Shown here: piece after piece, positions 339 through 48,472 of the stretch
Position numbering within the stretch: position 1 is the first letter of the stretch
Layout: every line of letters starts with the position of its first letter
DNA from: an uncultured Pseudomonadota bacterium
GTDB taxonomy: Bacteria; Pseudomonadota; Alphaproteobacteria; Rs-D84
Direction of reading: 5' to 3'
Assembly: GCA_902781465.1 (NCBI GenBank)
Contig: CACZJK010000001.1
Span: 142,831 to 206,830 of the forward strand
DNA: 64,000 nucleotides
The notes under the pieces: generated by a model
What the model saw: only the letters and a program-made list of their open reading frames with translations
What the model was told of the DNA's origin: nothing
Databases searched by the model: none
Translations under genes and position numbers: made by a program

Positions 339-349
339 AAGGGCAAAAA

Positions 350-1015
350 ATGTTGAAAAAGTTGAATTTGATAATGGTTTTTAGTTTGTTCGCAATTGGT
401 GTGAATAATGTATCGTACGCAATCGATGAATTTATCGAAGAAGAAGTTATTGAAGAATCTGATGCTGAATTGGCAGATCAAGTTTCGGCAGATGCTTTGC
501 TTAATTACAATGTTGATGGGACTTTATTTGAAAAGATAACAACTTTGGAACAAGAAAAAGTGGTTGCACAACTGGAAAAAGAACGCGCACAACTTGATTT
601 AGATTTGGAAAGATTGAACGCTGAAAAAATCAAATTACAAATGGAATTGGATACGTTGTCTGGTCGTGCAGAACAACAACAACAAGAATTAGAAGCTGCA
701 AAAGCGCAATTGGAAATTCAAACTGAAAAATTAAAGCGTCAAATGGATTCTTTGGATGAACAACAGGAAGTGGCTGCTGCGGTTGCGCCAGAAAAAAAGG
801 AAGAAAGCAGCGTTTCCAAGAAATATAAATTGGTAAATGTAGTGGGTGTTGGTAATCAATTACAGGCGACACTTGAAGAAGTTTCAACCGGTCAAAACAG
901 ACGTATCGCCGTAGGTAAAGAATTAGATGGTTATATTGTTAAATCTATTTCTTTGAACGAAGGTATTGTTTTTGAAAAAGACGGAACAACAGAAAATTTG
1001 AATATCGGAAAATAA
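350..1015 (+). CDS. Secreted coiled-coil protein (signal peptide plus long Q/E/L-rich coiled coil), probable pilus-biogenesis accessory protein
   Basis: N-terminal signal-like MLKKLNLIMVFSLFAIGVNNVSYA; heptad-rich QQQQELEAAKAQLEIQTEKLKRQ segment; translationally adjacent to the ATPase gene (stop 1015, next start 1018). Confidence 0.5.
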   Translation: MLKKLNLIMVFSLFAIGVNNVSYAIDEFIEEEVIEESDAELADQVSADALLNYNVDGTLFEKITTLEQEKVVAQLEKERAQLDLDLERLNAEKIKLQMELDTLSGRAEQQQQELEAAKAQLEIQTEKLKRQMDSLDEQQEVAAAVAPEKKEESSVSKKYKLVNVVGVGNQLQATLEEVSTGQNRRIAVGKELDGYIVKSISLNEGIVFEKDGTTENLNIGK

Positions 1016-1017
1016 TA

Positions 1018-2637
1018 ATGGCAAATACTGAAACTGTTTTTTCACAGCAACCATCAATCCCAAGCGGTTTGGAAAACGCAAACAGTAAAGATATTCTTGA
1101 TTACTTGTTTGCGAATAATAACCGTTTGTTGACAGCGTATGCGGCGGAATTGGCCCTGCCTAAAGATACTCAGAGTTTGATTGCTTATTTTTCTGGTGGT
1201 GAAATTATAATATCACGAACACATCGATATGATGGTCGTGTGTTGGCTTTTCTTGATTTGTTAAATCAAAAAAATATGTTGGTCAAAGAACCTTTTTATT
1301 CTGATTTGGGTTTGATATCAAACATATATAAAACCAATGATGAAAGATTGGGTGGTGGGACACATTCGCGCATTGATTATGATAACCAGATGCAGAAAGA
1401 TTTTGTTGATATTATCGCACGCGCGGCCGCACAAAAGGTTTCTGATATTCATATCGAAGTTGCAGATCAAACAACAATATATTTCCGCGTTGACGGCAGT
1501 ATGCAACCAGTATTGGAATATAATTCACAGTGGGGTGAATCGTTTGTGCGTGCGGCATTTGCATCGGCCGATATTTCTAATTCCAGTTATGCACAAAATG
1601 AATATCAAACTGCACAAAAAGATGGTCGAACACCATTACGTGGAACAAAAGATTTATATTTGCCGGCCGGTATTTTGGGTATTCGTATGCAATTTAACCC
1701 GATTGCTTTTGGTTCGCAATATGTTGTTATGCGTCTGCTTTATGATAACCCAAGTGAAGGCATCAAAACAGAACAAGAATTCAATGAATATGAACAAAAA
1801 TTATTGTTAAGATTGCGTTCTGCACCAACAGGTTTGGTAATTGTTGCGGGTCCTACATCTTCTGGTAAATCAACGACATTGGTTCGTAATATGGCATTGA
1901 TGTTGAAAGAAAGAAGATATGAAATAAACCTTATTACTGTGGAAGATCCGGCGGAACAAAAGATTTTTGGCGCACATCAAATGCCGGTTGTTAATGCAGT
2001 TAATGAAGAACAAAGGGAAGAAAAGTTCACAGAAGCCCTGGCGGCTGCATTACGAAGCGACCCTGATACATTGATGGTTGGGGAAATCAGAACGCTTTCT
2101 GCGGCACAATTGACGGTAAAGGGTGCATTATCAGGTCATAATGTTTGGACAACCTTGCATGCGAATTCTGCGATGGGTGCTTTGACCCGTTTGTTGGATA
2201 TGGGTGTTGAAGCATTTAAGTTAAAAGACGAAACAATGATGCGTGGTTTGGTATCTATGCGTTTATTTAAAAAACTTTGTCCATATTGTCGTGAAAATTT
2301 AAGTAGTCATCATGAACATACCGCATATAATCGTGTCAAAGATGCCTTTGGTGAGTTGGGATTAAAACAAGTATATGTTCGTGGTGCGGGTTGTGAACAT
2401 TGTAATGGTTCTGGAACGATAGGGCGTATCAAGGCCGGCGAAATAATCATGACCAACAGTGAATTTTTAAGTTTGGCACTTTCTGGCGATACCGAAGGCG
2501 CAATGAAATATTGGTTGGAAAAAATGAATGGGCGAACATTGAAAGAAGCGGCCATAGAATTGATGTTGCGTGGAATAATTGGTGTTGATGAACTGGAACG
2601 CTGGGTTGGATTACTGGACAGACCATGGGTGTATTAA
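1018..2637 (+). CDS. Type II secretion/type IV pilus assembly ATPase (GspE/PilB family; BfpD/TcpT/R64 PilQ-like)
   Basis: Walker A GPTSSGKSTT; Asp/His boxes; tetracysteine zinc motif CPYC...CEHC typical of GspE/PilB ATPases; 539 aa. Confidence 0.85.
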   Translation: MANTETVFSQQPSIPSGLENANSKDILDYLFANNNRLLTAYAAELALPKDTQSLIAYFSGGEIIISRTHRYDGRVLAFLDLLNQKNMLVKEPFYSDLGLISNIYKTNDERLGGGTHSRIDYDNQMQKDFVDIIARAAAQKVSDIHIEVADQTTIYFRVDGSMQPVLEYNSQWGESFVRAAFASADISNSSYAQNEYQTAQKDGRTPLRGTKDLYLPAGILGIRMQFNPIAFGSQYVVMRLLYDNPSEGIKTEQEFNEYEQKLLLRLRSAPTGLVIVAGPTSSGKSTTLVRNMALMLKERRYEINLITVEDPAEQKIFGAHQMPVVNAVNEEQREEKFTEALAAALRSDPDTLMVGEIRTLSAAQLTVKGALSGHNVWTTLHANSAMGALTRLLDMGVEAFKLKDETMMRGLVSMRLFKKLCPYCRENLSSHHEHTAYNRVKDAFGELGLKQVYVRGAGCEHCNGSGTIGRIKAGEIIMTNSEFLSLALSGDTEGAMKYWLEKMNGRTLKEAAIELMLRGIIGVDELERWVGLLDRPWVY

Positions 2638-2641
2638 GACA

Positions 2642-3712
2642 ATGAATAAACTGGAACTGCTTTATGCTAAATTAGTTTTCAAGACAGACACTGAAAAGCG
2701 TATGGCGATTTCACGTAAAATTGCATCCTTGTTGCGTAATAATTTTACATTGATGGACGCACTGCATCGTATAGAAATGATTGAATCGCATAATGGGCGC
2801 AAACCTAATGAGCCTTTTGCAATCGCAATGCGTGAAATTCAACAGAACCTTGAACGTGGTATGACTTTTGCTCAGGCCACATCTGGTTGGGTGCCAAGTG
2901 AAGAAACACTGTTGTTGACTTCTGGAAATGTCAGCAGTTTGTTAATATCGCTGGAAAATGTAGGTCGTGTTGTAAATGGCATAAATCGTATCAAAAGGGC
3001 AATGTGGTCTGCGGTTGCATATCCTTTGTTTTTGTTGATTTTAACAATTGCTATTATCGTTATGGTTGGTATTTATTTGGTGCCGCCATTGGCCGAAGCC
3101 GCCGGCAGTGATGTTATATGGCGTGGCACAGCGGCATCGTTGGTATGGGTATCTGATTTCGCAAATAAATATTGGTATGGCATAGCGGTCGCGTGTTTGG
3201 TTCTATTTGGGACTGTTTGGTTGTCGTTGCCTGTATGGACCGGAAAGATAAGAACTTTCTTTGATAAATTTCCACCATATAACACATATAAATTGCAAGT
3301 TTCGGTCAGTTGGTTAATGTCTTTGGCGGCGATGGTGTCTGCGGGTGTATCTGTGCCAGATGCAATGCGTTTATTGGCTGATTCAGGAAATAAATATTTG
3401 TCAGACATATTGGAAGATGCACTGCATTATATTGCAAATGGTGAAAATTTGGGTAATGCGCTGGCGTTGACAGGTAAAGATTTCCCAAGTGAAGAAATTG
3501 TTGGCGATTTGATGATTTATTCTGATATGAACGATTTTGATAAAAACCTTGATCAAATAGCGCGCGATTATATGGAAGAATCTGTTCGTAAAATGGAAAA
3601 TATATCAAGCATTTTAAACAGCATTGGAATTATTTTGGTATCTATTATCATCGGTTGGGTTGTTTTGGGAACGTTCCAGATGCAAGAACAGATAACATCC
3701 GTCTTCATGTAA
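2642..3712 (+). CDS. GspF/PilC-family inner-membrane platform protein (type IVb pilus PilR/BfpE/TcpE-like)
   Basis: Two T2SS-F-like domains separated by TM helices; ATG at 2642 sits 4 nt after the ATPase stop. The six-frame ORF begins at 2579 but its N-terminal 21 aa overlap the ATPase. Confidence 0.75.
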   Translation: MNKLELLYAKLVFKTDTEKRMAISRKIASLLRNNFTLMDALHRIEMIESHNGRKPNEPFAIAMREIQQNLERGMTFAQATSGWVPSEETLLLTSGNVSSLLISLENVGRVVNGINRIKRAMWSAVAYPLFLLILTIAIIVMVGIYLVPPLAEAAGSDVIWRGTAASLVWVSDFANKYWYGIAVACLVLFGTVWLSLPVWTGKIRTFFDKFPPYNTYKLQVSVSWLMSLAAMVSAGVSVPDAMRLLADSGNKYLSDILEDALHYIANGENLGNALALTGKDFPSEEIVGDLMIYSDMNDFDKNLDQIARDYMEESVRKMENISSILNSIGIILVSIIIGWVVLGTFQMQEQITSVFM

Positions 3713-3789
3713 AAACAAGCAAAATAAATTATAACAGCACATCTGCTTGTCGTTATTGCGTTCATGTACCTTTGTGTACACTTCACTTA

Positions 3790-3882
3790 ATAACAACGGC
3801 GCATCTGCGCCGTTCTAATTTATTTTGACGAAGAGGTTGGTTTTTTTCTTTAATTTTTTAAACGGCGCAGATGCGCCGTTCA
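3790..3882. terminator. Two 20-bp GC-rich palindromes, AACGGCGCATCTGCGCCGTT (3794-3813) and its exact reverse complement AACGGCGCAGATGCGCCGTT (3862-3881); bidirectional terminator pair between convergent genes
   Basis: Perfect 9-bp stems read directly; T-runs follow on both strands; lies between the + operon ending at 3712 and the - gene ending at 3910. Confidence 0.5.
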
Positions 3883-3909
3883 AATTTGTTTTTTTGTAAT
3901 CGGTTATTT

Positions 3910-4479
3910 TTACACAATAAATGGTAAATTTTCCAGTGTTCCTTCGGTGACGCGGACGTTAACGTCGATAAGCATAAACACTGAATCTGGTGTTTTTTCG
4001 ATATTACACGGGAAAAGGTCAGGTGATAATAAATGGCTGGTATTAACGTTTAATCTTGTCACCAGATGGTCGTCGTCCAATAATGTATAAATTGGCCCGA
4101 TATCGCGTGGTGTGTTTTGACCGATTTCGTGTTCGTTTTGTGGACAACGAAGGCCGTCCAGTATAGTTTTAACGCGATTATCAATATCAGAGTGTGGAAC
4201 GCCTACGATTTCTGGGTGCATTAATAAAATATCTAATTCTGCAATCATTTTAAGGTTTGGACTGATAATCGGATTCCAATCAATACCGCCAATATGACGC
4301 GTTATAACAGGGCTTTTTTTTGCGTCTGGCATCATAAATTTAGTCAGGTTATTCCAAGGTTGCAGGGTCACCAATTTTTTTAACTGCGGATGAAATTGCA
4401 TGCGAATATCAGCAATATGTTGCGCCCTTTTTTTAGGGTTAGTCAATATATCGCCATAGTATAAAAGTTTGAATTTCAT
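3910..4479 (-). CDS. Hypothetical protein (189 aa)
   Basis: Clean ORF with ATG start; no recognisable motif. Confidence 0.5.
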   Translation of the reverse strand: MKFKLLYYGDILTNPKKRAQHIADIRMQFHPQLKKLVTLQPWNNLTKFMMPDAKKSPVITRHIGGIDWNPIISPNLKMIAELDILLMHPEIVGVPHSDIDNRVKTILDGLRCPQNEHEIGQNTPRDIGPIYTLLDDDHLVTRLNVNTSHLLSPDLFPCNIEKTPDSVFMLIDVNVRVTEGTLENLPFIV

Positions 4480-4573
4480 AATAGGGTCCTTTTTGGTGTT
4501 TTTTCTTAGTTTTCTCTTGCTTATTATATCATAAATTGCTATGGTTTACCTAGCAAAAAGAAAGGATTTTTAA

Positions 4574-6973
<2,400 letters not shown>

Positions 6974-6981
6974 TAAATAAT

Positions 6982-6997
6982 GCCGGGTTTTCCCGGC
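6982..6997 (+). terminator. Rho-independent terminator hairpin GCCGGGTTTTCCCGGC followed by a T-run (after gyrB)
   Basis: Stem-loop plus TTTTT read directly; the same hairpin recurs at 10207-10222. Confidence 0.6.
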
Positions 6998-7010
6998 ATT
7001 TTTCAAATAA

Positions 7011-7685
7011 ATGAATAATATGTTTTCTAAATCTTGGTTTGAAAGTCTGGATACACAATTGCGTGAAATGGGCCTGGACAGTGATGATAAATCTTTTGAT
7101 GAAATCAAAGAAATTTTATCTTGTCCGCCACATCTTTCCTCTGATGATTTTGCAAGTACAGTTTCTTATGTAATTTTGGCAGGTGGTTTTTCACAAAAAA
7201 CTGCAAAAAGAATTCATAAAATTATTATGGAAAAAATGCCAGAAAACCCGGGTGTTGATGAATTGTTAAAAATATTTAATAACAAAAATAAAATAAATGC
7301 CATTGTTAAAATTTGGAATAGTCGTGAATCTTATAGGGATGGTTTTTATAAATGTTCTGGGTTAGAAGATAAATTAAACTATCTTCAAAAATTACCACAT
7401 ATTGGAAAAATTACAGCCAATCATTTGGCGCGCAATCTTGGTGAAAATGTTGTTAAATATGATATTTGGATTCAACGTCTTGGTGTTCTGTACGGCGGAA
7501 ATCCTGGGTTATACGACAAAATAGACAATGGAAAACTGGATGCCGATATAAAAAAATGTTGTGATGATATGTTTGAACATTTGCATAAAGAAACTGATTT
7601 GCCAATTGGGTATATTGATGTCGTATTGTGGAAAAGTTGTCAAAACGGATTAATCAAAGAGTTAAAAGATGGATGTAAAAATTGA
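7011..7685 (+). CDS. Helix-hairpin-helix protein, possibly an HhH-GPD-superfamily DNA glycosylase
   Basis: HhH motif [20 protein letters not shown]; no Fe-S cysteine cluster; sits next to ung. Product call is weak. Confidence 0.4.
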
Positions 7686-8334
7686 ACAATCTTGGAAAGA
7701 TGTTTTAAGCACAGAATTCGAAAAAGAGTATTTTAAAAAACTGACTGATTTTGTGCGCGGGGAATATATTTCCGGGAAAACAATTTATCCAGAACCAAAG
7801 AATATATTCAATGCGTTTAATTTGTGTCCGCTTTACAATGTAAAGGTTGTTATTATTGGGCAAGATCCGTATCATGAACCGGGTCAGGCGCACGGTCTTT
7901 GTTTTTCTGTGGAACAAGGAACTGATTTCCCACCGTCATTGCAAAATATATATAAAGAAATTGAATCTGATTTGGGGCATAAAAGTATTACAAATGGCGA
8001 TTTGTCAGCATGGGCACGCCAGGGTGTTTTGTTGCTGAATTCTACTTTGACTGTTCAGGCGCATATCGCTGCTTCGCACAGTGGTAAAGGTTGGGAAACT
8101 TTCACAGATTCTGTTATTCGTGCTGTAAACGAAACCCAAAAAAATGTTGTTTATATGCTTTGGGGATCTTTTGCCCAGAAAAAGGCAGAATTCGTAGATG
8201 CACAAAATAATTTGATATTAAAAAGTGCGCATCCATCACCATTATCTGCATATCGTGGATTTTTTGGTAATCATCATTTTTCACGCGCCAATGAATACCT
8301 TGTCCAAAATGGCAAAAAGCCAATAGATTGGTAA
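7669..8334 (+). CDS. ung: Uracil-DNA glycosylase (family 1)
   Basis: Canonical motif [18 protein letters not shown] and C-terminal HPSPLS motif. Confidence 0.9.
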
Positions 8335-8910
8335 TTAGTAATTATATGTGACCCCAATACCGTAAAAAGCGTATGAATTATTTTCTTCCGCAGTATTAGC
8401 ATTTGAAAAATGTTGAATAAAGAATTCTGTTGCCCATTGTTTGTTGATATTGTATCCCAATGTCACTTTGAATTCGAATATTAACTTGGCGCCAAGACGT
8501 TCGTTTTCTTGGGCCTGTAAGCCGGCACCGGCACCAAGACCACCGTATAAACGCTTATAACGGAAAAGCGCAATATCTTCGGTTAAATAAAACATAGGTA
8601 TTGTATAATCCTGCCATTTCCAGCCATATTTTTCATGAAATCCCAATGTTTCAGATATGTTTATCGAACGACGTGCCGGAACACGAAAGAAAGTTGTTGG
8701 TTGGGAATATGTAAAAGTCCCAATATAAAAAGGAACAGGGCGGGTTGGTGGCGGTAAAAGCCATCCTGTATCAAAACCTTGCCCAATTCCAAAACCGATT
8801 TGTTGTTGATATGTGCCCATAAAAGGATTTTTATCAGGTAAAACACAACTATCGGCCATTGCAGGTGCAATTGAACATAATATTGGTAATACGGCTAATA
8901 ATTTTCTCAT
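8335..8910 (-). CDS. Small outer-membrane beta-barrel protein (PagL/OmpW-like size); probable start MRKLLAVLPILCSIAPAMA
   Basis: Signal peptide; alternating amphipathic strands; ends in an aromatic residue (…GVTYNY). The six-frame ORF extends to 8958. Confidence 0.5.
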   Translation of the reverse strand: MRKLLAVLPILCSIAPAMADSCVLPDKNPFMGTYQQQIGFGIGQGFDTGWLLPPPTRPVPFYIGTFTYSQPTTFFRVPARRSINISETLGFHEKYGWKWQDYTIPMFYLTEDIALFRYKRLYGGLGAGAGLQAQENERLGAKLIFEFKVTLGYNINKQWATEFFIQHFSNANTAEENNSYAFYGIGVTYNY

Positions 8911-8952
8911 ACGGGACATTATATCATAAAAAAGCAGATAAAACAAATATTG

Positions 8953-8980
8953 TTGCAAAGTAAAAAAAGTCTGTTATAAT
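8953..8980 (+). promoter_or_regulatory. Sigma70-like promoter TTGCAA-16-TATAAT upstream of the tRNA-CAU gene
   Basis: TTGCAA 8953-8958, TATAAT 8975-8980; tRNA 5' end at 8991. Confidence 0.5.
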
Positions 8981-8990
8981 GCTTTTCGCT

Positions 8991-9065
8991 GGCGGCGTAG
9001 CTCAGTGGTAGAGCAGAGGAATCATAATCCTTTGGTCAGGGGTCCGAATCCCTTCGCCGCTACCA
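8991..9065 (+). tRNA. tRNA with CAU anticodon (elongator Met or lysidine-modified Ile2; arm sequences resemble E. coli ileX)
   Basis: Cloverleaf folded by hand: acceptor GGCGGCG/CGCCGCT, D arm GCTC-AGTGGTA-GAGC, anticodon loop ATCATAA (CAT), T loop TCCGAAT, encoded CCA. Confidence 0.85.
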
Positions 9066-9208
9066 AAATAATAAACGACCCTTGTGGTCGTTTTTTATTT
9101 TGATATCTGGGATTTGGACACCGATCCCGGGGTCCGACAACAAGTAGATTTTGGAAGCGGTAGCGCACCAAAATCGTCACGGTTGCCCCGCAGGCATTTA
9201 TGCCGAGG

Positions 9209-9225
9209 GAATCCCTTCGCCGCTA
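9209..9225 (+). repeat. Direct repeat of the tRNA-CAU 3' end (GAATCCCTTCGCCGCTA; tRNA copy at 9046-9062), preceded by a second copy of the T-stem fragment GGGGTCCGA at about 9129; att-like scar or decayed partial tRNA duplicate
   Basis: Exact 17-bp match read directly; the intervening approximately 146 bp contain a terminator hairpin (GACCCTTGTGGTC) and a tRNA-like fragment GGTAGCGCA. Confidence 0.6.
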
Positions 9226-9289
9226 TTTATAAAAATTCCTTTCTTTTTAATAAATATGGTGCAATATTTACTTGGGCGAGGTATAAAAA

Positions 9290-10132
9290 ATGAAAAATAT
9301 TTTAATTACTGGTGCAAATGGTCAATTGGGGTCAGAATTGGCAAGGATTATGCCATCGGCTGTTTTGACGGGACACAATGTTTTAGATATTACTGATAAG
9401 GTTGCTGTTGATAAATTTATAAAATCAAGAAAGATAGATACTGTTATAAATTGTGCTGCTTATACTGCGGTTGATTTAGCAGAAGATAACTATGATGATG
9501 CGTATAAAATAAATGCAATTGGACCAAGAAATTTAGCACAAACAGGATGCAAAATAATTCATATATCAACAGACTATGTTTTTTCTGGAAATGCGAAAGT
9601 CCCATATAAAACAACAGATAAAACAAATCCTTTGTCTGTGTATGGTTCTACTAAATTGGCCGGGGAAAAAGCGATTTTAGAAAATTCTGAAAACGGTATA
9701 ATAATCAGAACTTCTTGGCTATATTCTGAATTTGGAAAGAATTTTGTTAAAACTATGCGCAATCTTGGTGCAAGCAGAAGTGATATTTCGGTTGTTGCGG
9801 ATCAATACGGTTTGCCAACTTATGCGGCGAATTTAGCCTTTGCTATTTTTCAAATTATCCCACAAATAAAGCCGGATAATTCAGGTATATATCATTATTC
9901 AAACTCTGGTTCAGGAATTTCTTGGTATAATTTTGCAGATGAAATAATGAAACAATCTGGTTTGAACTGTGTTGTAAAACCTATAACCACAGATCAGTAT
10001 CCAACACGTGCAGTGCGCCCAAAGTACAGCGTAATGAATACTTCTAAAATACAGAAAACTTTTGGTGTAAAGATACCAATGTGGCAAGACGCGCTGAAAC
10101 ATTGTATCAAAGAATTGGAAAAACAGCATTAA
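9290..10132 (+). CDS. rfbD: dTDP-4-dehydrorhamnose reductase-like (RmlD family) NAD(P)-dependent reductase
   Basis: N-terminal ILITGANGQLGSEL Rossmann motif and overall RmlD length (280 aa); no rmlABC nearby, so the exact substrate is uncertain. Confidence 0.65.
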   Translation: MKNILITGANGQLGSELARIMPSAVLTGHNVLDITDKVAVDKFIKSRKIDTVINCAAYTAVDLAEDNYDDAYKINAIGPRNLAQTGCKIIHISTDYVFSGNAKVPYKTTDKTNPLSVYGSTKLAGEKAILENSENGIIIRTSWLYSEFGKNFVKTMRNLGASRSDISVVADQYGLPTYAANLAFAIFQIIPQIKPDNSGIYHYSNSGSGISWYNFADEIMKQSGLNCVVKPITTDQYPTRAVRPKYSVMNTSKIQKTFGVKIPMWQDALKHCIKELEKQH

Positions 10133-10176
10133 ATATATTGAAAAAAAGTGCTTTTTATGATATAATATAAACCAGT

Positions 10177-10222
10177 TCGACGGGGGATGCCGTCGATTTT
10201 TTTTATGCCGGGTTTTCCCGGC
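10177..10222 (+). terminator. Tandem terminator hairpins (CGACGGGGGATGCCGTCG then GCCGGGTTTTCCCGGC), each followed by a T-run
   Basis: Read directly downstream of the rmlD-like gene. Confidence 0.5.
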
Positions 10223-10249
10223 TTTTTTGTTATAACAAAAGGATAAATA

Positions 10250-11164
10250 ATGAATAAATTTATATTTTCTGGAAATGGTAAAAATAAAGATTTTTATTTT
10301 ACTTTTCCTTTCTTTTCAAATGCTGATATTGTTGTAAAAATCAACAATGATTTAGCGACCGGATATGGTGTTTTCTGTATTCCTGGTACAGGCAATAATG
10401 ATTTTCCTTTTACAGGTGGCCATATTCATTTTGCAACCGCACCAAAGACAACTGATGTCATAACCATAGAACGCAAATTGCAATTAAACCGCCTGATAGA
10501 TTATCAACCAACAGCGCCTCTTAATTCAACAACAGTTAATCAAGATATGAATTATTTCTTTGAATTGCTGAAAGATGTAAAAAGTGAATTGCTGGGTTTT
10601 GCAGAAACTTATAAAGAATTCACAGATACAGAAAGTGCGCAAGAATTGTTGGCGCGCATAGATGCTGTTATCGAAGAAATAGATAATCTTGGCGATATAT
10701 CAACGATAACAAGCAGTATATCAGAACTGGGCTCGTCGATAACAAGTTTGACTAATTCTTTGAACAGTTTGACAAGCACAGTCGGTGCGCATACGACAGA
10801 TATTGTGGCGCTTAGCGCTTTCAAAGACGGGGTTCTTGATTATGTGGTTGAATCGCAAGAACCAACCGCAGAAAACAATTATACCTGGTATCGAAAATAC
10901 AAATCTGGCTGGGTCGAACAAGGAGGTCAGATAACAAACAATAATGGTACTGAAAGAACTATATCTTTACCAATAACTATGACAAATACGAACTACACAT
11001 ATAACGATTGCTTTGAAACAATTATTCGCGAAGGCGGAAGCCCATGGCGAATAGTCGACACACCAAATGTATTAACAAACAAAACAACGACATCTTTTAC
11101 AAGATATATGCCAGATTGCGCAACAATAATACGTTGGAGTGTCTATGGCATTGCAAGCAATTAA
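10250..11164 (+). CDS. Phage tail-fibre-like protein with a T7 gp17-type N-terminal tail-attachment domain, a coiled-coil/Ser-Thr-rich shaft and a C-terminal globular tip
   Basis: N-terminus FSGNGKNKDFYFTFPFFSNADIVVKINN...DVITIERKLQLNRLIDYQP parallels T7 gp17 (DGSNRDFNIPFEYLARKFVVV...TTIELRRVTSTTDRLVDF); middle SSISELGSSITSLTNSLNSLTS repeats; followed by a hairpin terminator at 11165-11195. Confidence 0.55.
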   Translation: MNKFIFSGNGKNKDFYFTFPFFSNADIVVKINNDLATGYGVFCIPGTGNNDFPFTGGHIHFATAPKTTDVITIERKLQLNRLIDYQPTAPLNSTTVNQDMNYFFELLKDVKSELLGFAETYKEFTDTESAQELLARIDAVIEEIDNLGDISTITSSISELGSSITSLTNSLNSLTSTVGAHTTDIVALSAFKDGVLDYVVESQEPTAENNYTWYRKYKSGWVEQGGQITNNNGTERTISLPITMTNTNYTYNDCFETIIREGGSPWRIVDTPNVLTNKTTTSFTRYMPDCATIIRWSVYGIASN

Positions 11165-11177
11165 AAAACGGTTGTTT

Positions 11178-12254
11178 TTACAACCGTTTTTTTCTGTTTT
11201 GTATTTTGTATTTTATCATTGCACCACCATACCAAAAACAAGAAATTATATCTGCAATATAATGTCTTATTTTTTTTAATCTACAAAACGGACGTACTAC
11301 AATCTTATAATGATTTGCAAAATGTTCTTTTAAGTTTTCAAAATATTCACCATTATAATAATCTTTATAAGATTCGTCACAATATCTTTTATAATCTTTT
11401 ACAAAAGTTGGATATAAATATATGCCATGAATCCAATCATCTGCAGCAAGATAATCTTTGTTTTTAGAAAGTTTTTTATATGTTTTTTTCTGAATATATA
11501 CACCAATTTCATTAAACCCAACCGATATAACATTATTAGCTAATAATATATGCGATAATTGAACTTTATCTAATGTATAATCTAATTGGTCTTTCATCTT
11601 GCATTCAGGAAAATAGCGAGAAAAGAAATTCATTCCAACCCATTGTTCTGGCGGAAATTTCCAAGTTGCACCTTTATCGAGTATTTTGAAACCTGTATTT
11701 TTTTCATAAAACAACGAAAAATCAGGTTCATTTGTCAACGGACAGTCATAATAATCTTTTACATCTTCAGTTAACCCAAAACACAACCAATCACTTAAAT
11801 CAAAAGGTCTATCAATAACAAATTTTGGAGATAACGTTTCTTGATAACGAGAAAATATACTATAAAATAAAACACGCTCTTTAAATATTGAATATTTTTT
11901 ATCCCGTTTTGGAAATTGTTTTGCAATATCATTTAATATTTTTGAATTTGTAAATATTAAATCGGAACGCATACGAATAACATATTTTGTTTTAACCGCA
12001 CCTAAACCAGCCTTGGAAGTCACCAAAATACGGTTGGTCATATTGCTTAAAGTTTTTGTTATTTTTGTTGCGCCAGGATCATCAGATTCAACCAAAACAT
12101 CATAATCAAGTCCATCAACATTATGATTTTTATATGTTGAAAATATAATAGTTGCCCCAGGCAAATATTTACGGATGCTTTTTATACATCTTTTTGTCTG
12201 ATGTTTTATGTTTATCCCTTGAACAACAACAGATATATCTTTTGGATTTATCAT
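11178..12254 (-). CDS. Putative LPS/polysaccharide biosynthesis protein (WavE-like family)
   Basis: N-terminal ISVVVQGINIKHQTKRCIKSIRKYLPGATIIFSTY resembles the WavE family start; Y/W-rich and AT-biased like the surrounding glycan genes. Family call is tentative. Confidence 0.35.
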   Translation of the reverse strand: MINPKDISVVVQGINIKHQTKRCIKSIRKYLPGATIIFSTYKNHNVDGLDYDVLVESDDPGATKITKTLSNMTNRILVTSKAGLGAVKTKYVIRMRSDLIFTNSKILNDIAKQFPKRDKKYSIFKERVLFYSIFSRYQETLSPKFVIDRPFDLSDWLCFGLTEDVKDYYDCPLTNEPDFSLFYEKNTGFKILDKGATWKFPPEQWVGMNFFSRYFPECKMKDQLDYTLDKVQLSHILLANNVISVGFNEIGVYIQKKTYKKLSKNKDYLAADDWIHGIYLYPTFVKDYKRYCDESYKDYYNGEYFENLKEHFANHYKIVVRPFCRLKKIRHYIADIISCFWYGGAMIKYKIQNRKKRL

Positions 12255-12979
12255 TTATAATCCTTTTTATTAAAATAATATGTATTATTTCTATCCCAAA
12301 TAAAATTACCAGATTTTAAAACTTTTGCTGGTTGTCCACAGAATATATATGGTTTTTTACTGTTTTTTGGATTTGATGCAGACGTATACAATGTTCTCGC
12401 TCCCAAAATTGAACCATCTGGAATATTCGCACCTTTTAATATTAAACATTGTGTACCAACCCAAACATGATTTCCTATCATTATATTCTTTGGTTTATTA
12501 ATGGCATCACCTTTGTCATCTATTATCGCATGTCCATCCGAAGGCCATATTGTTATATCAAAAGACAACATACAATCCTTGCCTATTTTTACAATTCTTT
12601 CTGGTTCATCATGTAACCATATTTTTGCACCTTCAACAGAACAATCAGAATCTATAAGCAACTTGCTGTATCTTGACATTCTAGCAGGTATGATTAAATC
12701 TTTTATATAAAAGTTAGTTTGTTTTATTTCTATAATATTATCATCACCTACTTCAAAATAACAATTGATAAATCTATAAGGTTCATGTATTTTTACAACA
12801 CTATTTTGCCCCAAAAATTTAATTGTTAATCCTTTGACTTTTTTTATTTCTTTTATTTTGCCATCTTTTTTAACAATTAATATTTTGTTGTTCTTTATTC
12901 TGGACAACATGTCAAAATATTTACATGTTTTACCAAAAGTTAAATGCTTTAATAATCTATATAAATTATTACGCGACAT
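12251..12979 (-). CDS. Hexapeptide-repeat (left-handed beta-helix) O-acetyl/acyltransferase
   Basis: Hexapeptide repeats IGNHVWVGTQCLILKGANIPDGSILGARTL; typical WbbJ/NeuD-like size. Confidence 0.6.
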   Translation of the reverse strand: MSRNNLYRLLKHLTFGKTCKYFDMLSRIKNNKILIVKKDGKIKEIKKVKGLTIKFLGQNSVVKIHEPYRFINCYFEVGDDNIIEIKQTNFYIKDLIIPARMSRYSKLLIDSDCSVEGAKIWLHDEPERIVKIGKDCMLSFDITIWPSDGHAIIDDKGDAINKPKNIMIGNHVWVGTQCLILKGANIPDGSILGARTLYTSASNPKNSKKPYIFCGQPAKVLKSGNFIWDRNNTYYFNKKDYK

Positions 12980-12982
12980 AAC

Positions 12983-13990
12983 CTAGCCTTTGTAATTTTT
13001 TTGATATTCAATAATTTCTTTTAATCCGTCCAATAAATCTGTTTTTGCAACATAGTCAAATTCAGCACGGACTTTGTCGCCATTACCAAGGCAATGTTTA
13101 AATACTTCTTGTTTTACGCGTTCTTTTTTCAAGTTATAACGCGCATTAAACAATTCTTCGTATTTATCCCAAAACTTTAATGGTTCACCTGTATCATATT
13201 CTAATTCTTTACCCAACGCAGCATAGATTGTTTGAGCTATTTCCATTGCAGAATATGCTTTACCGGTTGCCAAATTGAAAATATCTGCATGATATTCTTT
13301 GTCTGACATTGCCATACGATACAAATATTGCATCAAATCATAAACATAGATATAATCGCGTTTACAATCTTCTGTGTTATAAATTGTTGGTTTACGTCCC
13401 GCCAATGCTTCACGAATCAAGAAAGATGTAAATGGTGGATATTTACGTTTAAAATCTTGGTGTGGACCAAACACGTTAAAGAAACGACATATTACAATAT
13501 CCATACCATAATTTTGTGCAAATGATTTACAAATTTGTTCTGAACAATATTTAGTTGTTGCATAAACTAAATTTGGGTGAACTTCATCTGTTTCTTTGTG
13601 AACTTCATCAGATGGATTGTTTTCATAAATTGCAGATGTTGATGCGAATATAACACGTTTTACATTGCTGCGACGAACCGCATTTAATACATTAGCAGTT
13701 GCAGCCGTATTCACATCAAACGCTTTATATGGATGTGATTCACATTCTGGTAACGCAGAAATCCCAGCAAAATGATAAACAATATCAATTCCTTCTAAAT
13801 ATTTACCAAAATCAGGGTCACGAACATCTGCCATGATAAAGTTTTGTTTTAACGTTTCATTATCTTCAAAATTATCACGATAACCATATTCCAAATTATC
13901 CAACAATTTTACATTATGTCCTTGAGATAATAAAAATTTTCCCAATTCAGAACCTATGAAACCTGCACCACCTGTGATAAGAATATTCAT
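12983..13990 (-). CDS. NAD-dependent nucleotide-sugar epimerase/dehydratase (extended SDR)
   Basis: MNILITGGAGFIGSELGKFL Rossmann motif; YxxxK region; 335 aa. Confidence 0.75.
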   Translation of the reverse strand: MNILITGGAGFIGSELGKFLLSQGHNVKLLDNLEYGYRDNFEDNETLKQNFIMADVRDPDFGKYLEGIDIVYHFAGISALPECESHPYKAFDVNTAATANVLNAVRRSNVKRVIFASTSAIYENNPSDEVHKETDEVHPNLVYATTKYCSEQICKSFAQNYGMDIVICRFFNVFGPHQDFKRKYPPFTSFLIREALAGRKPTIYNTEDCKRDYIYVYDLMQYLYRMAMSDKEYHADIFNLATGKAYSAMEIAQTIYAALGKELEYDTGEPLKFWDKYEELFNARYNLKKERVKQEVFKHCLGNGDKVRAEFDYVAKTDLLDGLKEIIEYQKNYKG

Positions 13991-14005
13991 GTTTTTCCCT
14001 TTTGT

Positions 14006-15064
14006 TTAATCTATGTAATCTTTGATTGACGAATTACGCGGTAATGTGATTGCAATGCCAGAAGGATATGGATTTGTTGGTGCAAAATCATTTATAACTA
14101 CACGTGCCGCGTGATTCATTCCCATTAAAATTGCATATGGTTTTATGCCAACTTCATTTAACATTTTTTGAAGGTTTTCACGAAATTCTTCGCCACGTGA
14201 AGTTGTTATAACTATTTGTGCGCCGTTATCCTGTAATTGTTTTAATGTTTCCACATTGTCTTCCAACATGGTTGTATTGTTATACCAATTTATTTTTCCA
14301 TATTTGCCAGAATTTTTCATTATAACACCATCAACATCTACAAAATATGTGCGGTGTTGTTTTTGAACTTTTTTCCATTCAGTTAATGTTCCCCAATCAT
14401 CATAAGAATCTGCATAAACCGCCTCAAAAACATAATTATCAGATGATAACATATACGAAATTACGTGTGATATATACATTTCGCCAGAAATTTGGTGGCT
14501 TTGCATTTCTTCGTATGCTTTTACAAAATCGTTTGCGTTTTCAAAACAATATACCCCCAAACAAATTACATTTGATACAACCTGTTTTTCGATAATGTCT
14601 TGGATAACACCTTGTTCATTTACTATCAAGAAACTTTTCCCTGGGATATTTGTGACGTCACGATGTTTATGCAAATCATACCCAACAATCATATTTTTTA
14701 TTTGTTTATCAAAATGAACACCAACACGATTATCTGAATCTTTGATAACAAAAGAACCTTCGACATTCATTTTCTTTAGTGTTAAATATATTGTTTCGCT
14801 GGCGCTTGAAGTAAAATCGTCCAATAAACAAATTTCTACCTTTGGATTGTTTTCAAAGACTTGATGCATAATAAGGTTTGCTTCGTATTTATCGTCGTGT
14901 GGTTTTACGATTGTAATTATGATACGGTCAAAAACGTCAATATTGATGTTTTCCATAGCCTTTTCAATCATTAATTTTCCATCTGGATGAGTAAGCATAT
15001 ATTTGGGTTTCATATTTGGGAAACGACTTGATTTTCCAGCACATGGAATTATAAGGGTATTCAT
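14006..15064 (-). CDS. Bifunctional sugar-phosphate/phospho-alcohol nucleotidyl(cytidylyl)transferase (LicC/IspD-like N-domain) fused to a HAD-family phosphatase domain
   Basis: N-terminus LIIPCAGKSSRFPNMKPKYML (nucleotidyltransferase G-loop); C-terminal YFVDVDGVI...TTSRGEEF (HAD motifs I-III). Confidence 0.55.
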   Translation of the reverse strand: MNTLIIPCAGKSSRFPNMKPKYMLTHPDGKLMIEKAMENINIDVFDRIIITIVKPHDDKYEANLIMHQVFENNPKVEICLLDDFTSSASETIYLTLKKMNVEGSFVIKDSDNRVGVHFDKQIKNMIVGYDLHKHRDVTNIPGKSFLIVNEQGVIQDIIEKQVVSNVICLGVYCFENANDFVKAYEEMQSHQISGEMYISHVISYMLSSDNYVFEAVYADSYDDWGTLTEWKKVQKQHRTYFVDVDGVIMKNSGKYGKINWYNNTTMLEDNVETLKQLQDNGAQIVITTSRGEEFRENLQKMLNEVGIKPYAILMGMNHAARVVINDFAPTNPYPSGIAITLPRNSSIKDYID

Positions 15065-15924
15065 TATTTATTCTCCTTATTATCTAAAATGTTATTCAAT
15101 TTCGTGATTGCGTTATGTAAAAATGTCCGTGTAGTATCATCTTTTGCGTATGGGACAATTCGCATAACATTTAAAAGCAAGATGTAATAAATCTGTAAAA
15201 CTTTTTTATTACCATCCGGTAATTCAGAAATGTATTTAATTAAGCCATCGCGCGCGACCGCCAATCTTAATTCAAGATTTGACGATATTTCTTCATGACG
15301 ATAAGACCATTGTAATTCAAGATCTTGTAATAGTTTTGCCACATCTATCATCCAAGAATCGAAAAATGAATCTAAAAAGTCTATTAAATAAATATTGCCT
15401 TTGACGTCTAATAATATGTTTTCTAAAGTTAAATCACCGTGACATTTAGAATACGGAATTTCAGAAAAATTAAAACCTTCCAATCTTTTTAGTGCGTTTA
15501 TATAAATGTCTTCGGTTGGAATATTGTTATAAAGCGATTTAATTTTCTTTTGAAAAATTTCATTTGTTTCTGGCATAACAACACTATCATCAATGTGTAA
15601 TTCATTAACAACCCATTCAACAAATGCAGGTATTTCTTTGATTGATACTGTTTCCATATACTTCGCCATTGTACAGCAATTCAAATATTCCATATCAAAA
15701 TAAAAAATACCATCTTGGATACCTGTTTTATAAATTTGCGGAACACGAATATTTGAATTTTTCGATGATTTATAACCAACTTGTTTTGCGATTTGTATTC
15801 GTAATCTTTTGTTATAATCTGGACGCCCCGCTGTTTTACGGACGAAGAAAAGATCATTTTCGCGGAACAGTGAAATTTCACATCCACTGTGTCCCGATAA
15901 ATTTTTTATAAATTGTTCTGACAT
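15064..15924 (-). CDS. Choline/aminoglycoside-kinase-family small-molecule kinase (LicA-like)
   Basis: Brenner motif HGDLTLENILLD and DFLDSF metal-binding motif of the APH/ChoK fold; stop/start is coupled with the cytidylyltransferase gene. Confidence 0.55.
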   Translation of the reverse strand: MSEQFIKNLSGHSGCEISLFRENDLFFVRKTAGRPDYNKRLRIQIAKQVGYKSSKNSNIRVPQIYKTGIQDGIFYFDMEYLNCCTMAKYMETVSIKEIPAFVEWVVNELHIDDSVVMPETNEIFQKKIKSLYNNIPTEDIYINALKRLEGFNFSEIPYSKCHGDLTLENILLDVKGNIYLIDFLDSFFDSWMIDVAKLLQDLELQWSYRHEEISSNLELRLAVARDGLIKYISELPDGNKKVLQIYYILLLNVMRIVPYAKDDTTRTFLHNAITKLNNILDNKENK

Positions 15925-15946
15925 TATTTTTTCCTAAAATATTCAA

Positions 15947-16834
15947 TTAATCAAATTTTCCAATTGAAAAGACAAAACTAAACCAGTTAAACAAATTGAT
16001 ATCTATGTTCGTTATTGGCGGTAAAATACGCAATAAGTGAATAAAGATACCTTTTTTCCTTAAATGGAAACTTATTATGTTTGAACGGTTTAATTTTATT
16101 TGTGCAAAGCGTTTAATCTTGAAAGATTTTATATATTGATACGAACCAAGATATACTGGACGTAAATTATGTGATAAAATATTATCTATTAAAAAACCTT
16201 CGGCATGATAATCTATGTTATCTCCTTTTTTTGCAGGCACTTTTAATTTGTCGCAAAGTTTTGATATTGCTTTTGCACCACCAAAAAATAATAAATCGAC
16301 AGTTTCAACATAATTTAATCCATACATATCACGATCTGGGGTGTGTCCTGCCAGATATATATTTGTCCCATCTTGATTAAATTTATCGTTTATGTATTTT
16401 TCAATCTTCAAATCTTCTAACAACACAACATCAGGTCTTATACAAACAACCATATCGTATTTAATCTTGTGTTTTTTTTGGTAATCTTCGCGTAATTTAT
16501 TAACTGTTTTAATAGAATGATATACAGACATTAAACCTTGAAGAGCGAATTCGTATCCGTGGACTATAATTTTATCGTCAGTATATAATTTTTGATGTTC
16601 GATTTTGATTTGTTCTGGCAAAATACCGAGTTTTTGTATTATTTGTTCTTGATTAACTTTCTTATTTACATTTTTGAAATTATTATGCCAAGTCTTTGAA
16701 TTATGGTTGTATGTATCCCATGTATGCATAAAAATATCGCACTCATAGCGATTTAATAAGTGTCTTTTTATTGACGGCAGGCATTTTTCAAATGTCCTTA
16801 AATGACCAAAAAATTGAACCGCTATGCGTGGCAT
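15947..16834 (-). CDS. Hypothetical protein, possible sugar transferase; first gene of the minus-strand glycan operon
   Basis: 295-aa ORF immediately outside IR-L of the invertible segment; no firm motif. Confidence 0.45.
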   Translation of the reverse strand: MPRIAVQFFGHLRTFEKCLPSIKRHLLNRYECDIFMHTWDTYNHNSKTWHNNFKNVNKKVNQEQIIQKLGILPEQIKIEHQKLYTDDKIIVHGYEFALQGLMSVYHSIKTVNKLREDYQKKHKIKYDMVVCIRPDVVLLEDLKIEKYINDKFNQDGTNIYLAGHTPDRDMYGLNYVETVDLLFFGGAKAISKLCDKLKVPAKKGDNIDYHAEGFLIDNILSHNLRPVYLGSYQYIKSFKIKRFAQIKLNRSNIISFHLRKKGIFIHLLRILPPITNIDINLFNWFSFVFSIGKFD

Positions 16835-16860
16835 AAAAAACTCTTTTTTTCTATAAAAAC

Positions 16861-16881
16861 CAATCGGTCGTTTGATGTTTA
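16861..16881. repeat. IR-L: CAATCGGTCGTTTGATGTTTA, left arm of a 21-bp perfect inverted repeat (hix/gix-like recombination site)
   Basis: Exact reverse complement of 17577-17597; contains the imperfect palindrome ATCAAACGACCGATTGAT, whose half-site ATCAAAcgACC resembles the Hin/Gin half-site ATCAAAAACC. Confidence 0.8.
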
Positions 16882-17489
16882 CAGGTTTTGACTGTGCAAA
16901 AATGCGTAAAGTGTTGGTGGGGAAATTTTGAATTTTCTGGCTATTTTGGTCTTTGGCATGTCTTTGGCATACCTTGTTTTATCATATTTATTATTTTGTT
17001 TTCGTTGCCATCGATTTTATGATGCGTGTTTTTACTGCCAAAACGCCGCCCAAGAATCACACCTGCTTCGCGACGGCGCGCCAAGGCTTCACGTGTGCGC
17101 AGACTGATTAAATCTCGTTCTATTTCTGCGGAAATTCCAAACGCAAAAGCCAATACTTTCGATTGAATATTGTCACCCAATTCATAGCCGTCTTTGACGG
17201 TATAAACATAAGCCCCACATTTCATACAATGTTCCAAAATTCGCATAATCATAAATAATTTTCGGCCCAGGCGCGATAATTCAGAACAGATAATAATGTC
17301 GCCGGTTTTCAGTTTTTTCAAAATTCCACCAAGTGCACGATTATTTGGTTCGACTGTCCCAGAAATTCCAGAATCCATAATATATTTATCTATTGTTATT
17401 CCCATAGATTTGGCCTTGGTTATAATTCCTGTTTTCTGGTTTTCACAGTCTTGTTTATCTGTGCTGACGCGAATATATCCGTATATCAT
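16879..17489 (-). pseudogene. Hin/Gin/Cin-family small serine DNA invertase, frameshifted by an 11-bp tandem duplication; the present ORF (16941-17489) lacks the C-terminal HTH
   Basis: N-terminus MIYGYIRVSTDKQ (catalytic Ser) and resolvase core. The + strand shows GTCTTTGGCAT twice in tandem (16949-16959, 16960-16970). Removing one copy restores ...GMPKTKIARKFKISPPTLYAFLHSQNL* with a Hin-type HTH and a stop at 16879-16881 inside IR-L. Confidence 0.7.
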
Positions 17490-17543
17490 TTTGTTTTCCT
17501 TTTTTTGTGTTGTTATATCCAAATAGGAAAACAAACAAACGCT

Positions 17544-17572
17544 TGATATTAAAGAAACTTATTTGTATAGTA
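17544..17572 (+). promoter_or_regulatory. Near-consensus sigma70 promoter TTGATA-17-TATAGT inside the invertible segment, reading outward across IR-R into the + glycosyltransferase operon
   Basis: TTGATA 17544-17549, 17-nt spacer, TATAGT 17567-17572; RBS AAGGA then ATG at 17623. Confidence 0.55.
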
Positions 17573-17576
17573 TTCA

Positions 17577-17597
17577 TAAACATCAAACGACCGATTG
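17577..17597. repeat. IR-R: reverse complement of IR-L (AAACATCAAACGACCGATTG plus flanking base)
   Basis: Exact 21-bp inverted match to 16861-16881. Confidence 0.8.
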
Positions 17598-17622
17598 ATT
17601 TTAATAAAATAAGGATTTTTAT

Positions 17623-48460: not shown

Positions 48461-48472
48461 GGAATAGAAATT

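Follow-up and report, generated by a model that had tools for sequence, protein, structure and literature searches.

Introduction

What does a phage-type tail fiber do in a bacterial chromosome where no virion is in sight to carry it? The question is raised by a gene at positions 10250-11164 (plus strand) of a 64,000-nucleotide stretch of DNA from an uncultured alphaproteobacterium of the order Rs-D84 (assembly GCA_902781465.1, contig CACZJK010000001.1, positions 142,831 to 206,830), here called the window. The gene encodes a protein of 304 amino acids (aa), and an earlier reading of the sequence (hereafter the original prediction) had likened its N-terminus to the tail-attachment domain of T7 gp17. 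The window, with a GC content of 0.356, is ordinary chromosome: type IV pilus genes, gyrB, UDG, PagL, tRNA-Met and rmlD precede the fiber gene, and about 11 kb of low-GC glycan genes lie 3' of it, followed by aspS, uvrB, ftsA/Q, recA and ruvABC. Neither a capsid, portal, terminase or tail gene nor a paralogue of the fiber is present in these 64 kb, and the fiber does stand alone in a cellular glycan locus, as first proposed.

Here we describe the architecture of the fiber and its family, the linkage of its tip to the neighboring glycan genes, and a T7-like cluster of structural genes encoded elsewhere in the same organism. We conclude, with moderate confidence, that the protein is a strain-matched receptor-binding fiber that serves, in trans, a chromosomal, podovirus-derived particle resembling a gene transfer agent (GTA) in Candidatus Enterousia.

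A miniature tail fiber

The gene and its parts are as follows.

10250..11164, plus strand: fiber open reading frame (ORF), 304 aa; presence and translation confirmed
10250..10549, plus strand: residues 1-100, predicted T7-gp17-type tail-docking domain (N-domain), from Pfam, PHROGs, tblastn and Foldseek
10550..10837, plus strand: residues 101-196, predicted coiled-coil shaft with length-variable repeats; model helices at 93-195, with the indels of the family alignment located here
10838..10927, plus strand: residues 197-226, invariant neck motif and recombination breakpoint; invariant columns, and homology to the sister-strain locus L137 stops at 10926
10928..11164, plus strand: residues 227-304 and stop codon, hypervariable, putatively receptor-binding knob resembling gp53 and R-pyocin tips, from Foldseek and from Pfam on family member P0016

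By sequence, the homology of the N-domain to T7-type fibers is real but weak. The Pfam profile PF03906 (Phage_T7_tail) aligns residues 6-94 with its positions 11-91 at 15.8 bits (E=0.012), short of the gathering score of 25.2. Searches of PHROGs return phrog_30017 at 2.6e-12 and phrog_1640, annotated 'tail protein', at 4.3e-6, and tblastn matches the fiber N-termini of cyanophage P-SSP7 and of a Pelagibacter podophage. Against PDB sequences the single protein gave only coiled-coil noise and was set aside as a query; a profile of the whole family matched orf22 of 9efk at 6.8e-6. The question of fold is settled by structure prediction. In an AlphaFold2 monomer model (39 homologues as input, pLDDT 81), the N-terminal 110-130 residues are matched by Foldseek, with probability 1.0, to podovirus fiber N-domains of tail complexes solved by cryo-electron microscopy, namely those of LME-1, Carin-1, Kp7, P-SCSP1u, PhiM1 and T7 gp17 (9efk_AE at 1.3e-5 and 8ck1_B at 5.6e-5; also 7y22, 8i4m, 8vbx, 9jz0, 7ey7, 7ey9 and 7boz).

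Beyond the N-domain, residues 93-195 of the model form one long helical region of the kind seen in trimeric coiled coils, and profile searches find the shaft similar to trimeric adhesin and sigma-1 coiled coils. The C-terminal beta-domain of about 80 aa resembles the fiber tips of R1 and R2 pyocins (6ct8, 6cl6 and 6cl5, E 1e-3 to 2e-3). A Pfam scan of the window fiber's knob alone had no match; family member P0016 reaches 29.2 bits with PF21882 (Gp53-like_C; gathering threshold 24.9). Since matches of fold and sequence extend across N-domain, helix and knob, the modeled protein is best described as a complete miniature fiber, with docking domain, shaft and receptor-binding knob, and the three-part plan given in the original prediction is borne out. 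The protein has no signal peptide or other recognizable secretion signal.

The fiber belongs to a family of 1,151 unannotated homologues. The best 120 of these are mostly about 285-330 aa in length, and several of them lie on contigs of 200-969 kb. Judged by species-representative genomes, the hosts are Candidatus Enterousia and its relatives in Rs-D84, Alphaproteobacteria of gut and rumen, with one to three fiber copies per genome; the closed Rs-D84 genome OZ007020.1 (958,618 bp) has a family member, at locus L063. Genomes of this group measure 0.75-1.0 Mb and contain few pseudogenes (PMC12306168). Between the window and its sister strain, the ratio of nonsynonymous to synonymous substitution rates (dN/dS) is 0.13 over fiber codons 1-225, 0.19 for rmlD and 0.02 for gyrB; for the N-domain (residues 1-100) it is 0.21. 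The family is thus chromosomal and under purifying selection. In one metagenome-assembled genome (MAG), two full-length fiber genes (L070 and L079, contig JAKSTC010000009.1, ~22.3-35.0 kb) lie on either side of an 11-kb glycan locus and point toward each other, so that both knob ends are on the inside, and a third copy lies on a separate contig.

The knob is inherited with the glycan cassette

The family alignment falls into four parts. The N-domain is conserved, the coiled coil has repeats that vary in length, the neck is invariant, and the knob, about 65-90 aa long, is hypervariable. The neck reads D197-YV..Q..P...NNYTWYRKYKSGWVEQGG-226, its end also being given as …YTWYRKYKSGWVEQGG. Unrelated tips are found in 13 of the 67 full-length genomic members, and the same knob occurs on differing N-domains, the two having been shuffled relative to each other.

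The genomic setting of the family is regular on one side only. The nearest downstream gene lies on the opposite strand, convergent with the fiber gene, in 65 of 66 genomic loci (median gap about 30 bp); the upstream gene is of mixed orientation. A Pfam scan of the two nearest genes per side (129 downstream, 118 upstream) found downstream 24 GT2 proteins, nine hexapeptide transferases, seven GT1 proteins and six sugar dehydratases or epimerases, along with GT8, GT11, FkbM methyltransferases, LicD, Glyphos_transf and others. The upstream neighbors are housekeeping genes such as rpsA, lpxK, an ABC transporter, adk and dsbA, and no phage family was detected among these neighbors on either side. 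The fiber therefore sits at the edge of a variable glycan locus with its knob end inward.

Comparison with the sister strain locates the boundaries of the variable segment. Synteny with L137 is kept from the pilus genes to rmlD, with 92-93% nucleotide identity from window position 2183 to 10926, and the similarity ends exactly with codon 226, which is also where the neck motif ends. Across window positions 10927-16852, the knob and five minus-strand glycan genes are replaced in L137 by an unrelated knob and other genes (GT2, GT2, GLF and others), and similarity restarts at 16854, at a resolvase gene. Two features of the window belong to this segment and its far edge.

11178..16834, minus strand: convergent glycan operon exchanged along with the knob (WavE, hexapeptide transferase, epimerase and three others); no L137 homology in 10927-16852
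16846..17612, no strand assigned: far boundary of the cassette, a resolvase gene (16941..17534, minus strand) between 36-nt inverted repeats; L137 homology is back at 16854, and Pfam Resolvase matches the L137 orthologue

The same coupling is seen across the family. Among 44 non-redundant loci (946 pairs, label permutation), the ten pairs whose knobs reach an identity of 0.45 or more have on average 4.0 downstream ORFs in common, and at least two in 9 of the 10; all other locus pairs have 0.3-0.4. For the 265 pairs whose N-domains are at least 0.75 identical while their knobs differ, the figure is 0.5. Similar knobs thus predict common downstream glycan genes (permutation p = 2e-4). From the breakpoint in L137 together with these locus-pair statistics, it follows that the knob is inherited as part of the glycan cassette and not with the rest of the fiber gene.

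The resolvase at the far boundary is a serine recombinase gene that lies between two divergent glycan operons. Its inverted repeats are 89% complementary and are the same around the L137 orthologue, giving the arrangement the look of an invertible switch.

A T7-like structural cluster in the same organism

A syntenic cluster of T7-like structural genes, about 14 kb long, is found on a contig other than the fiber's (L289, 4842-19109; also L286-L288, L285, L034, L040, L080, L218 and L284). On the chromosome its order is small ORFs, T7-type scaffold, capsid, tubular A, tubular B, a 115-aa protein, an N-domain stub and the ATPase half of the terminase; it continues with an inverted block, the nuclease half of the terminase, the portal and two small ORFs. 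The inverted block of 3.3 kb, made up of a 213-aa protein, a 335-aa helix-turn-helix (HTH) regulator and DnaB, splits the large terminase into separate ATPase and nuclease ORFs, and this split is kept in all eight loci seen. T2SSE (319 aa), FKBP, LpxI and a tRNA U5-methyltransferase flank the cluster on the left and UPF0102 on the right, and it occupies the same chromosomal place in two species.

Fragments of this cluster have entered viral collections. A profile of the N-domain only, run on 2.9 million viral contigs, retrieved besides one contig discussed below (L011) only 'viral' contigs of 5-14 kb, whose gene order is capsid, tubular A, tubular B (570 aa), 115-aa protein, 182-aa tip-less N-domain stub, terminase, DnaB helicase, HTH regulator and portal. 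Because this order, DnaB included, is the same as on chromosomal contigs of 96-103 kb, the IMG/VR contigs L285, L034, L040 and L284 are fragments of the chromosomal cluster.

The mode of inheritance can be judged from sequence divergence. Taken against the L286 reference in 6-7 genomes, identities are 84-94% for the capsid, 78-91% for the portal, 71-85% for DnaB and 50-67% for tubular B; portal and capsid diverge in step with DnaB, here the essential host gene of comparison, or are more conserved than it. For tubular B, more than 1,000 homologues were retrieved, 62-100% identical and nearly all of exactly 570 aa, many of them on MAG contigs of 120-320 kb from Alphaproteobacteria. The GC content of the cluster is 0.36, close to that of the window. 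Because the cluster has matching neighbors in both species, portal and capsid identities track or exceed that of DnaB, the nozzle (tubular B) is of uniform length and the GC content is host-like, the structural genes appear to be fixed in the chromosome and vertically inherited under purifying selection, as those of a GTA would be.

The original prediction had allowed that the fiber might simply belong to an intact T7-like prophage elsewhere in the genome. T7-like structural genes do exist elsewhere, but the cluster is not an intact (autographivirus-type) prophage: among the called genes of the ~21-kb loci L286-L289, Pfam recognized no phage RNA polymerase, DNA polymerase, lysis gene or integrase. 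Of genes that could serve self-propagation, DnaB and the HTH regulator lie inside the cluster. Nor does the cluster resemble a tailocin, since it encodes capsid, scaffold, portal and terminase and has no sheath or tube genes.

Links between the fiber and the cluster

The nozzle of this cluster (P0283) is present in ERZ28613905, ERZ1029112 and ERR3224611, the three samples that contain the window fiber, and on one NCBI contig. Contig L289, from the same three samples, carries tubular A (172 aa), tubular B (570 aa), capsid, portal and terminase. Elsewhere, MAG IKF41 holds both fiber and nozzle; one nozzle homologue is from the MAG of fiber P0038. Putative adaptor (gp11-like) and nozzle (gp12-like) partners are in this way encoded in the same organism. 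The statement that the fiber has no virion to attach to therefore holds within the window and fails beyond it, given that a T7-like cluster occurs in these samples and in the genomes of relatives.

The stub of the same-organism cluster scores 26.1 bits with PF03906, above the gathering score, and aligns with the fiber at 32% identity over 190 residues (E=1e-23). In L080 the cluster is without the stub gene and a mini-fiber lies 3.4 kb beyond the portal; in three other genomes a protein of about 150 aa, combining Mtd_N with a knob, follows the portal directly. With fiber genes at glycan loci and the cluster elsewhere, the attachment genes are as a rule located away from the main cluster, and in L080 the two adjoin. 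Since the cluster is syntenic, is without recognized integrase, polymerase or lysis genes, is conserved like DnaB and has a tip-less stub of its own, the fiber is not simply part of an intact prophage, and we therefore regard it as an accessory gene that belongs to a domesticated element and lies apart from it.

A leader with terminator-like hairpins

The region before the fiber gene and the junction with the convergent operon contain the following elements.

10138..10166, plus strand: sigma-70-type promoter, TTGAAA, 17-nt spacer, TGaTATAAT (TG-extended); 11 of 12 consensus matches, extended -10
10177..10204, plus strand: leader hairpin 1 (10177-10196, GC-rich) and T8 run, terminator-like; position kept, sequence variable
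10207..10228, plus strand: leader hairpin 2 (10207-10222) and T6 run, terminator-like; at a distance of ~43-52 nt from the ATG in the majority of loci
10223..10240, plus strand: invariant 16-bp palindrome TTTTGTTATAACAAAA, overlapping the Shine-Dalgarno sequence; invariant columns in the leader alignment
11163..11192, no strand assigned: hairpin common to the convergent fiber and WavE genes, bidirectional-terminator-like; 13-bp stem between A- and T-runs, overlapping both stop codons

The same -35 and TGnTATAAT boxes align in 39 leaders, and 61 of 67 genomic loci have a hairpin with a T-run ahead of the fiber start codon; many have a second hairpin still further upstream. Most loci have this layout whatever the direction of the upstream gene, with hairpin sequences that vary and positions and palindrome that are fixed. 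Hairpin 2 is too near the ATG for a promoter to lie downstream of it. Across about 2 Mb of fetched loci, the palindrome motif occurs essentially only before N-domain fiber genes. A search of Rfam with the leader returned no family at threshold. RNAalifold, applied to a MAFFT alignment of the leaders, recovered the palindrome only, the variable hairpins being misaligned, and the hairpins were instead established per sequence.

Because a promoter and two hairpins lie between rmlD and the fiber, and because the leader is also kept where the upstream gene is divergent, the co-transcription with rmlD that had been considered possible is not supported. The terminator shared with the minus-strand operon, also part of the original prediction, is present in the form listed above. 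Together these elements suggest that the fiber is transcribed on its own and gated by termination. Antitermination control has been documented for the Caulobacter GTA (bioRxiv 10.1101/2023.11.12.565669).

Phages with related fibers

Knobs of this type are not confined to the chromosome. In 46 viral loci from rumen and gut the knob alone is shared with the chromosomal fibers, borne on long fibers. One IMG/VR contig, L011, goes further: it encodes an 801-aa fiber with the same N-domain, leader and knob, alongside terminase, portal, capsid, sheath, tube and baseplate genes. A myovirus was accordingly considered as the partner of the fiber and rejected on three grounds. On the fiber side, the source contig of L011 runs into host lpxC, lpxK and DUF374; free E217-like relatives attach their fibers by a different N-terminus, having only shaft and knob in common with the chromosomal fibers; and the exact leader, one chance match aside, is confined to L011 among viral contigs. 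Homologues of the sheath from this habitat all lie on phage-sized contigs of at most 103 kb, and those phages also use another fiber N-terminus. We read L011 as a host-prophage junction or as a chimeric assembly through common modules. The longer L211 (1-10126, equal to L011 plus 4 kb) has the 801-aa fiber between host lpxC/lpxK/DUF374 and an E217-like myovirus prophage, which suggests integration via homologous recombination in the fiber gene or, again, chimeric assembly.

The leader was likewise considered as a signature of phage late promoters and rejected: its exact 19-mer occurs in 2 of the 2.9 million viral contigs, once at the L011 junction and once as a chance match, and the T7-like cluster is without it. 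From these comparisons, the T7-type N-domain and the leader appear to be chromosomal hallmarks, and tips and shafts to be exchanged with phages.

Several further features of these phage loci may be recorded. Two of them concern L282 (10470-12125) and L227 (12900-13760): in related myophages the fiber gene comes after recT and before a resolvase, so that its tip may be invertible, and the prophage contains, between the wedge gene and recT, an ORF-free, GC-richer stretch of about 870 bp with no Rfam match. Three to four tandem ORFs, each ending in a WYRKY..GW.EQGG knob, are present in L045 (1611-6311), L047 (1758-10324), L023 (8393-10327) and L049 (6737-11533); some of them are only 126-167 aa long, as if they were spare tip cassettes.

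Other features of the window and related loci

Three paralogues of the AMP-binding (acyl/aryl-CoA ligase) type, 526-530 aa each, stand in tandem at window positions 46868-51668. Beside tRNA-Met, L137 (6700-9040) has about 1.9 kb more than the window (8959-9290), comprising a VanY-type peptidase and one further ORF; the edges of this extra segment are a 27-bp tRNA repeat, and it resembles a small integrated element. In one abundant species (L004 and L006 compared with L005), the region directly upstream of the fiber (1-10000) varies between strains and the downstream side is constant. One of the upstream alternatives is an Eco57I-type restriction-modification system with methyltransferases, accompanied by a toxin-antitoxin pair of the SocA/Panacea type; the other is an element that bears an integrase.

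Proposed function and alternative explanations

If the fiber serves a GTA-like particle, homology suggests that fiber trimers would dock through the N-domain at the adaptor-nozzle junction, either in place of the tip-less stub or next to it. The knob would bind the glycan made by the linked operon, so that the particles a cell releases would go to cells of the same glycan type, and a new glycan cassette would bring the matching tip along. The specificities of knob and glycan are probably matched, because the knob travels with the cassette. The leader terminators may hold expression off until an antiterminator or a palindrome-binding protein releases it at particle production. Production of the particle, its DNA content, the ligand of the knob and the mode of regulation are features that we infer.

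Several observations weigh against this interpretation. The tie between fiber and cluster is co-occurrence in three samples, not in one closed genome, and the fiber N-domain has just 32% identity with the stub that its own organism encodes. The GTTATAAC leader is not carried by the cluster, which deprives the two of a sign of co-regulation. No internal ejection proteins were recognized in the cluster, a gap that adds to the lack of recognized lysis genes. Since it contains DnaB and the HTH regulator, the cluster could be a tiny temperate element that is able to replicate, and not domesticated at all. Finally, knob and glycan genes could travel together in part because they are linked beside the one conserved stretch where crossover can occur, and not because their specificities match.

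The first rival explanation builds on the replication genes. The ~14-kb cluster may be an active and very small temperate podovirus, or a phage-like replicon equipped with a helicase and repressor of its own, that is nearly fixed, with the fiber a displaced structural gene serving the virus and not the cell. DnaB, the 335-aa regulator, terminase, portal, capsid and tail genes would together suit such an element, IMG/VR labeled its fragments viral, a genuine myovirus prophage is adjoined by long fibers that have this N-domain and leader, and shaft and knob modules are shared with phages. We nevertheless judge this unlikely, though it deserves to be kept in mind. Its flanking genes agree between two species, the genes called in the ~21-kb loci include no recognized integrase or polymerase, the terminase is split by the inverted DnaB block in 8 of 8 loci, and the structural proteins diverge in step with DnaB at a host-like GC content. 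Moreover, genomes below 1 Mb with few pseudogenes seldom keep parasites everywhere, and a host-range gene outside the packaged unit could not travel to a new host.

The fiber might instead be an anti-phage decoy made on infection, which would fill the docking sites on progeny tails or, released by lysis, block the glycan receptor of kin, so that infection spreads less. Such a protein would need lysis for its release, in keeping with the missing signal peptide; its knob type is common to many phage fibers of the habitat (the 46 viral loci), receptor blocking would suit a knob matched to the glycan locus of its own cell, a terminator-gated leader could answer a phage late antiterminator, and in one species the fiber lies beside a variable defense island (restriction-modification, toxin-antitoxin). 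We judge the decoy improbable. N-domains of the Enterousia type are nearly absent from the 2.9 million viral contigs, where they occur only on chromosomal fragments and one host-prophage junction; the myophages of the habitat have a different attachment N-terminus; and the obvious adaptor and nozzle partner is the cell's own cluster. Receptor blocking, for its part, leaves the strict conservation of the docking domain unexplained.

As a particle-free adhesin or lectin of the cell surface, the protein would use its knob to anchor to the cell's own polysaccharide or to attach to partner cells. This organism, with its reduced genome, probably depends on such partners, the trimeric coiled coil is like the stalks of adhesins, and the knob is linked to a glycan locus. 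We hold this to be very unlikely all the same: a signal peptide or recognizable secretion signal is missing, a hypervariable tip fits poorly with a C-terminal secretion signal, and the most conserved part of the protein is a virion-docking domain that has a paralogue inside a capsid and tail cluster. That a lone phage-like gene with no phage neighbors in the window is a functionless remnant of an old prophage, beside the glycan locus by chance, is scarcely credible for a family whose more than 1,100 members are uniform in length, with a dN/dS of 0.13, a conserved leader, position and orientation fixed in 65 of 66 loci, and retention in genomes below 1 Mb.

Relation to known systems

The proposed accessory fiber of a GTA-like particle has counterparts in several known systems. 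With T7 gp17 and other podovirus fibers (7ey7, 7ey9, 7boz; 9efk of LME-1, 8ck1 of Carin-1) it has in common the N-terminal docking fold and the plan of N-domain, trimeric shaft and receptor-binding part, and adaptor and nozzle genes are likewise present in the Enterousia organism. Unlike gp17, it is just 304 aa long, with a plain coiled-coil shaft and a gp53 or R-pyocin-type knob, and it is encoded apart from the structural genes, at a glycan locus and behind its own, putatively terminator-gated leader. The knob fold resembles that of R-type pyocin fibers (6cl5, 6cl6, 6ct8) and of the gp53-like domain of phage AP22 (PF21882), with Foldseek E of about 1e-3, and C-terminal domains of this type bind lipopolysaccharide or other surface glycans. 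R-pyocin fibers, however, join the baseplate of a contractile tail by another N-terminus, in capsid-free particles, whereas the Enterousia N-terminus is of podovirus type and capsid genes are present.

In podoviruses with branched receptor-binding systems, such as KP32-like and SP6/K1-5-like phages, a gp17-like N-domain anchor is combined with a second tailspike. The 182-aa stub, an N-domain with a short helical tail, resembles such an anchor, and some genomes have the separate ~150-aa protein of Mtd_N and knob beside the portal; the mini-fiber differs in combining anchor and knob in one chain at a glycan locus.

Among GTAs, RcGTA and CcGTA of Alphaproteobacteria have accessory loci for fibers and head spikes that lie apart from the main cluster, and their control is by GafYZ antitermination (bioRxiv 10.1101/2023.11.12.565669). 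Enterousia similarly has chromosome-fixed, phage-derived structural genes with dispersed attachment genes, and the terminators within its fiber transcription unit suggest antitermination control. RcGTA recognizes its recipients through surface polysaccharide. RcGTA-type particles are siphovirus-like, with HK97-type head and tail modules, whereas the Enterousia element is T7-like in its tubular A and B, T7-type portal, scaffold and terminase nuclease. FpGTA of Faecalibacterium prausnitzii, a GTA-like gut element of presumed podovirus-like morphology, occupies more than one locus, including one for a receptor-binding protein, and was termed the first podovirus-like GTA by its authors (PMC12946183). 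It belongs to another phylum and comes with packaging data; the Enterousia element would be a second and independent case.

In the searchable literature we found nothing on phages or GTAs of Rs-D84, nor any description of a GTA fiber tip physically coupled to a glycan cassette. Attachment genes at separate loci were already known for GTAs; a T7-type GTA in Alphaproteobacteria and a tip carried in a glycan cassette were not.

Implications

Some sequences that public collections list as 'viral contigs' derive from the bacterial chromosome, being fragments of the Enterousia element. The pairs of knob and glycan locus described here form a natural catalogue from which phage-receptor specificity could be learned, and the fusion of a fiber tip to a glycan cassette is a new genetic arrangement that offers a testable link between the diversity of surface glycans and the specificity of gene exchange or targeting.

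Should the proposed function be correct, this would be only the second podovirus-type GTA-like element to be put forward and the first in Alphaproteobacteria, where the known GTAs are all siphovirus-like. Genomes of less than 1 Mb would then devote about 1.5-2% of their length to a domesticated T7-like particle and its strain-matched fibers, and the particle would have to be important to them. More tentatively, and as a possibility that we would not yet call probable, Enterousia and Rs-D84 in general may possess a previously unrecognized podovirus-derived GTA whose targeting is hard-wired to the cell's own glycan type by a tip in an exchangeable cassette. Such a GTA would give these bacteria a built-in means of confining DNA exchange to one serotype.

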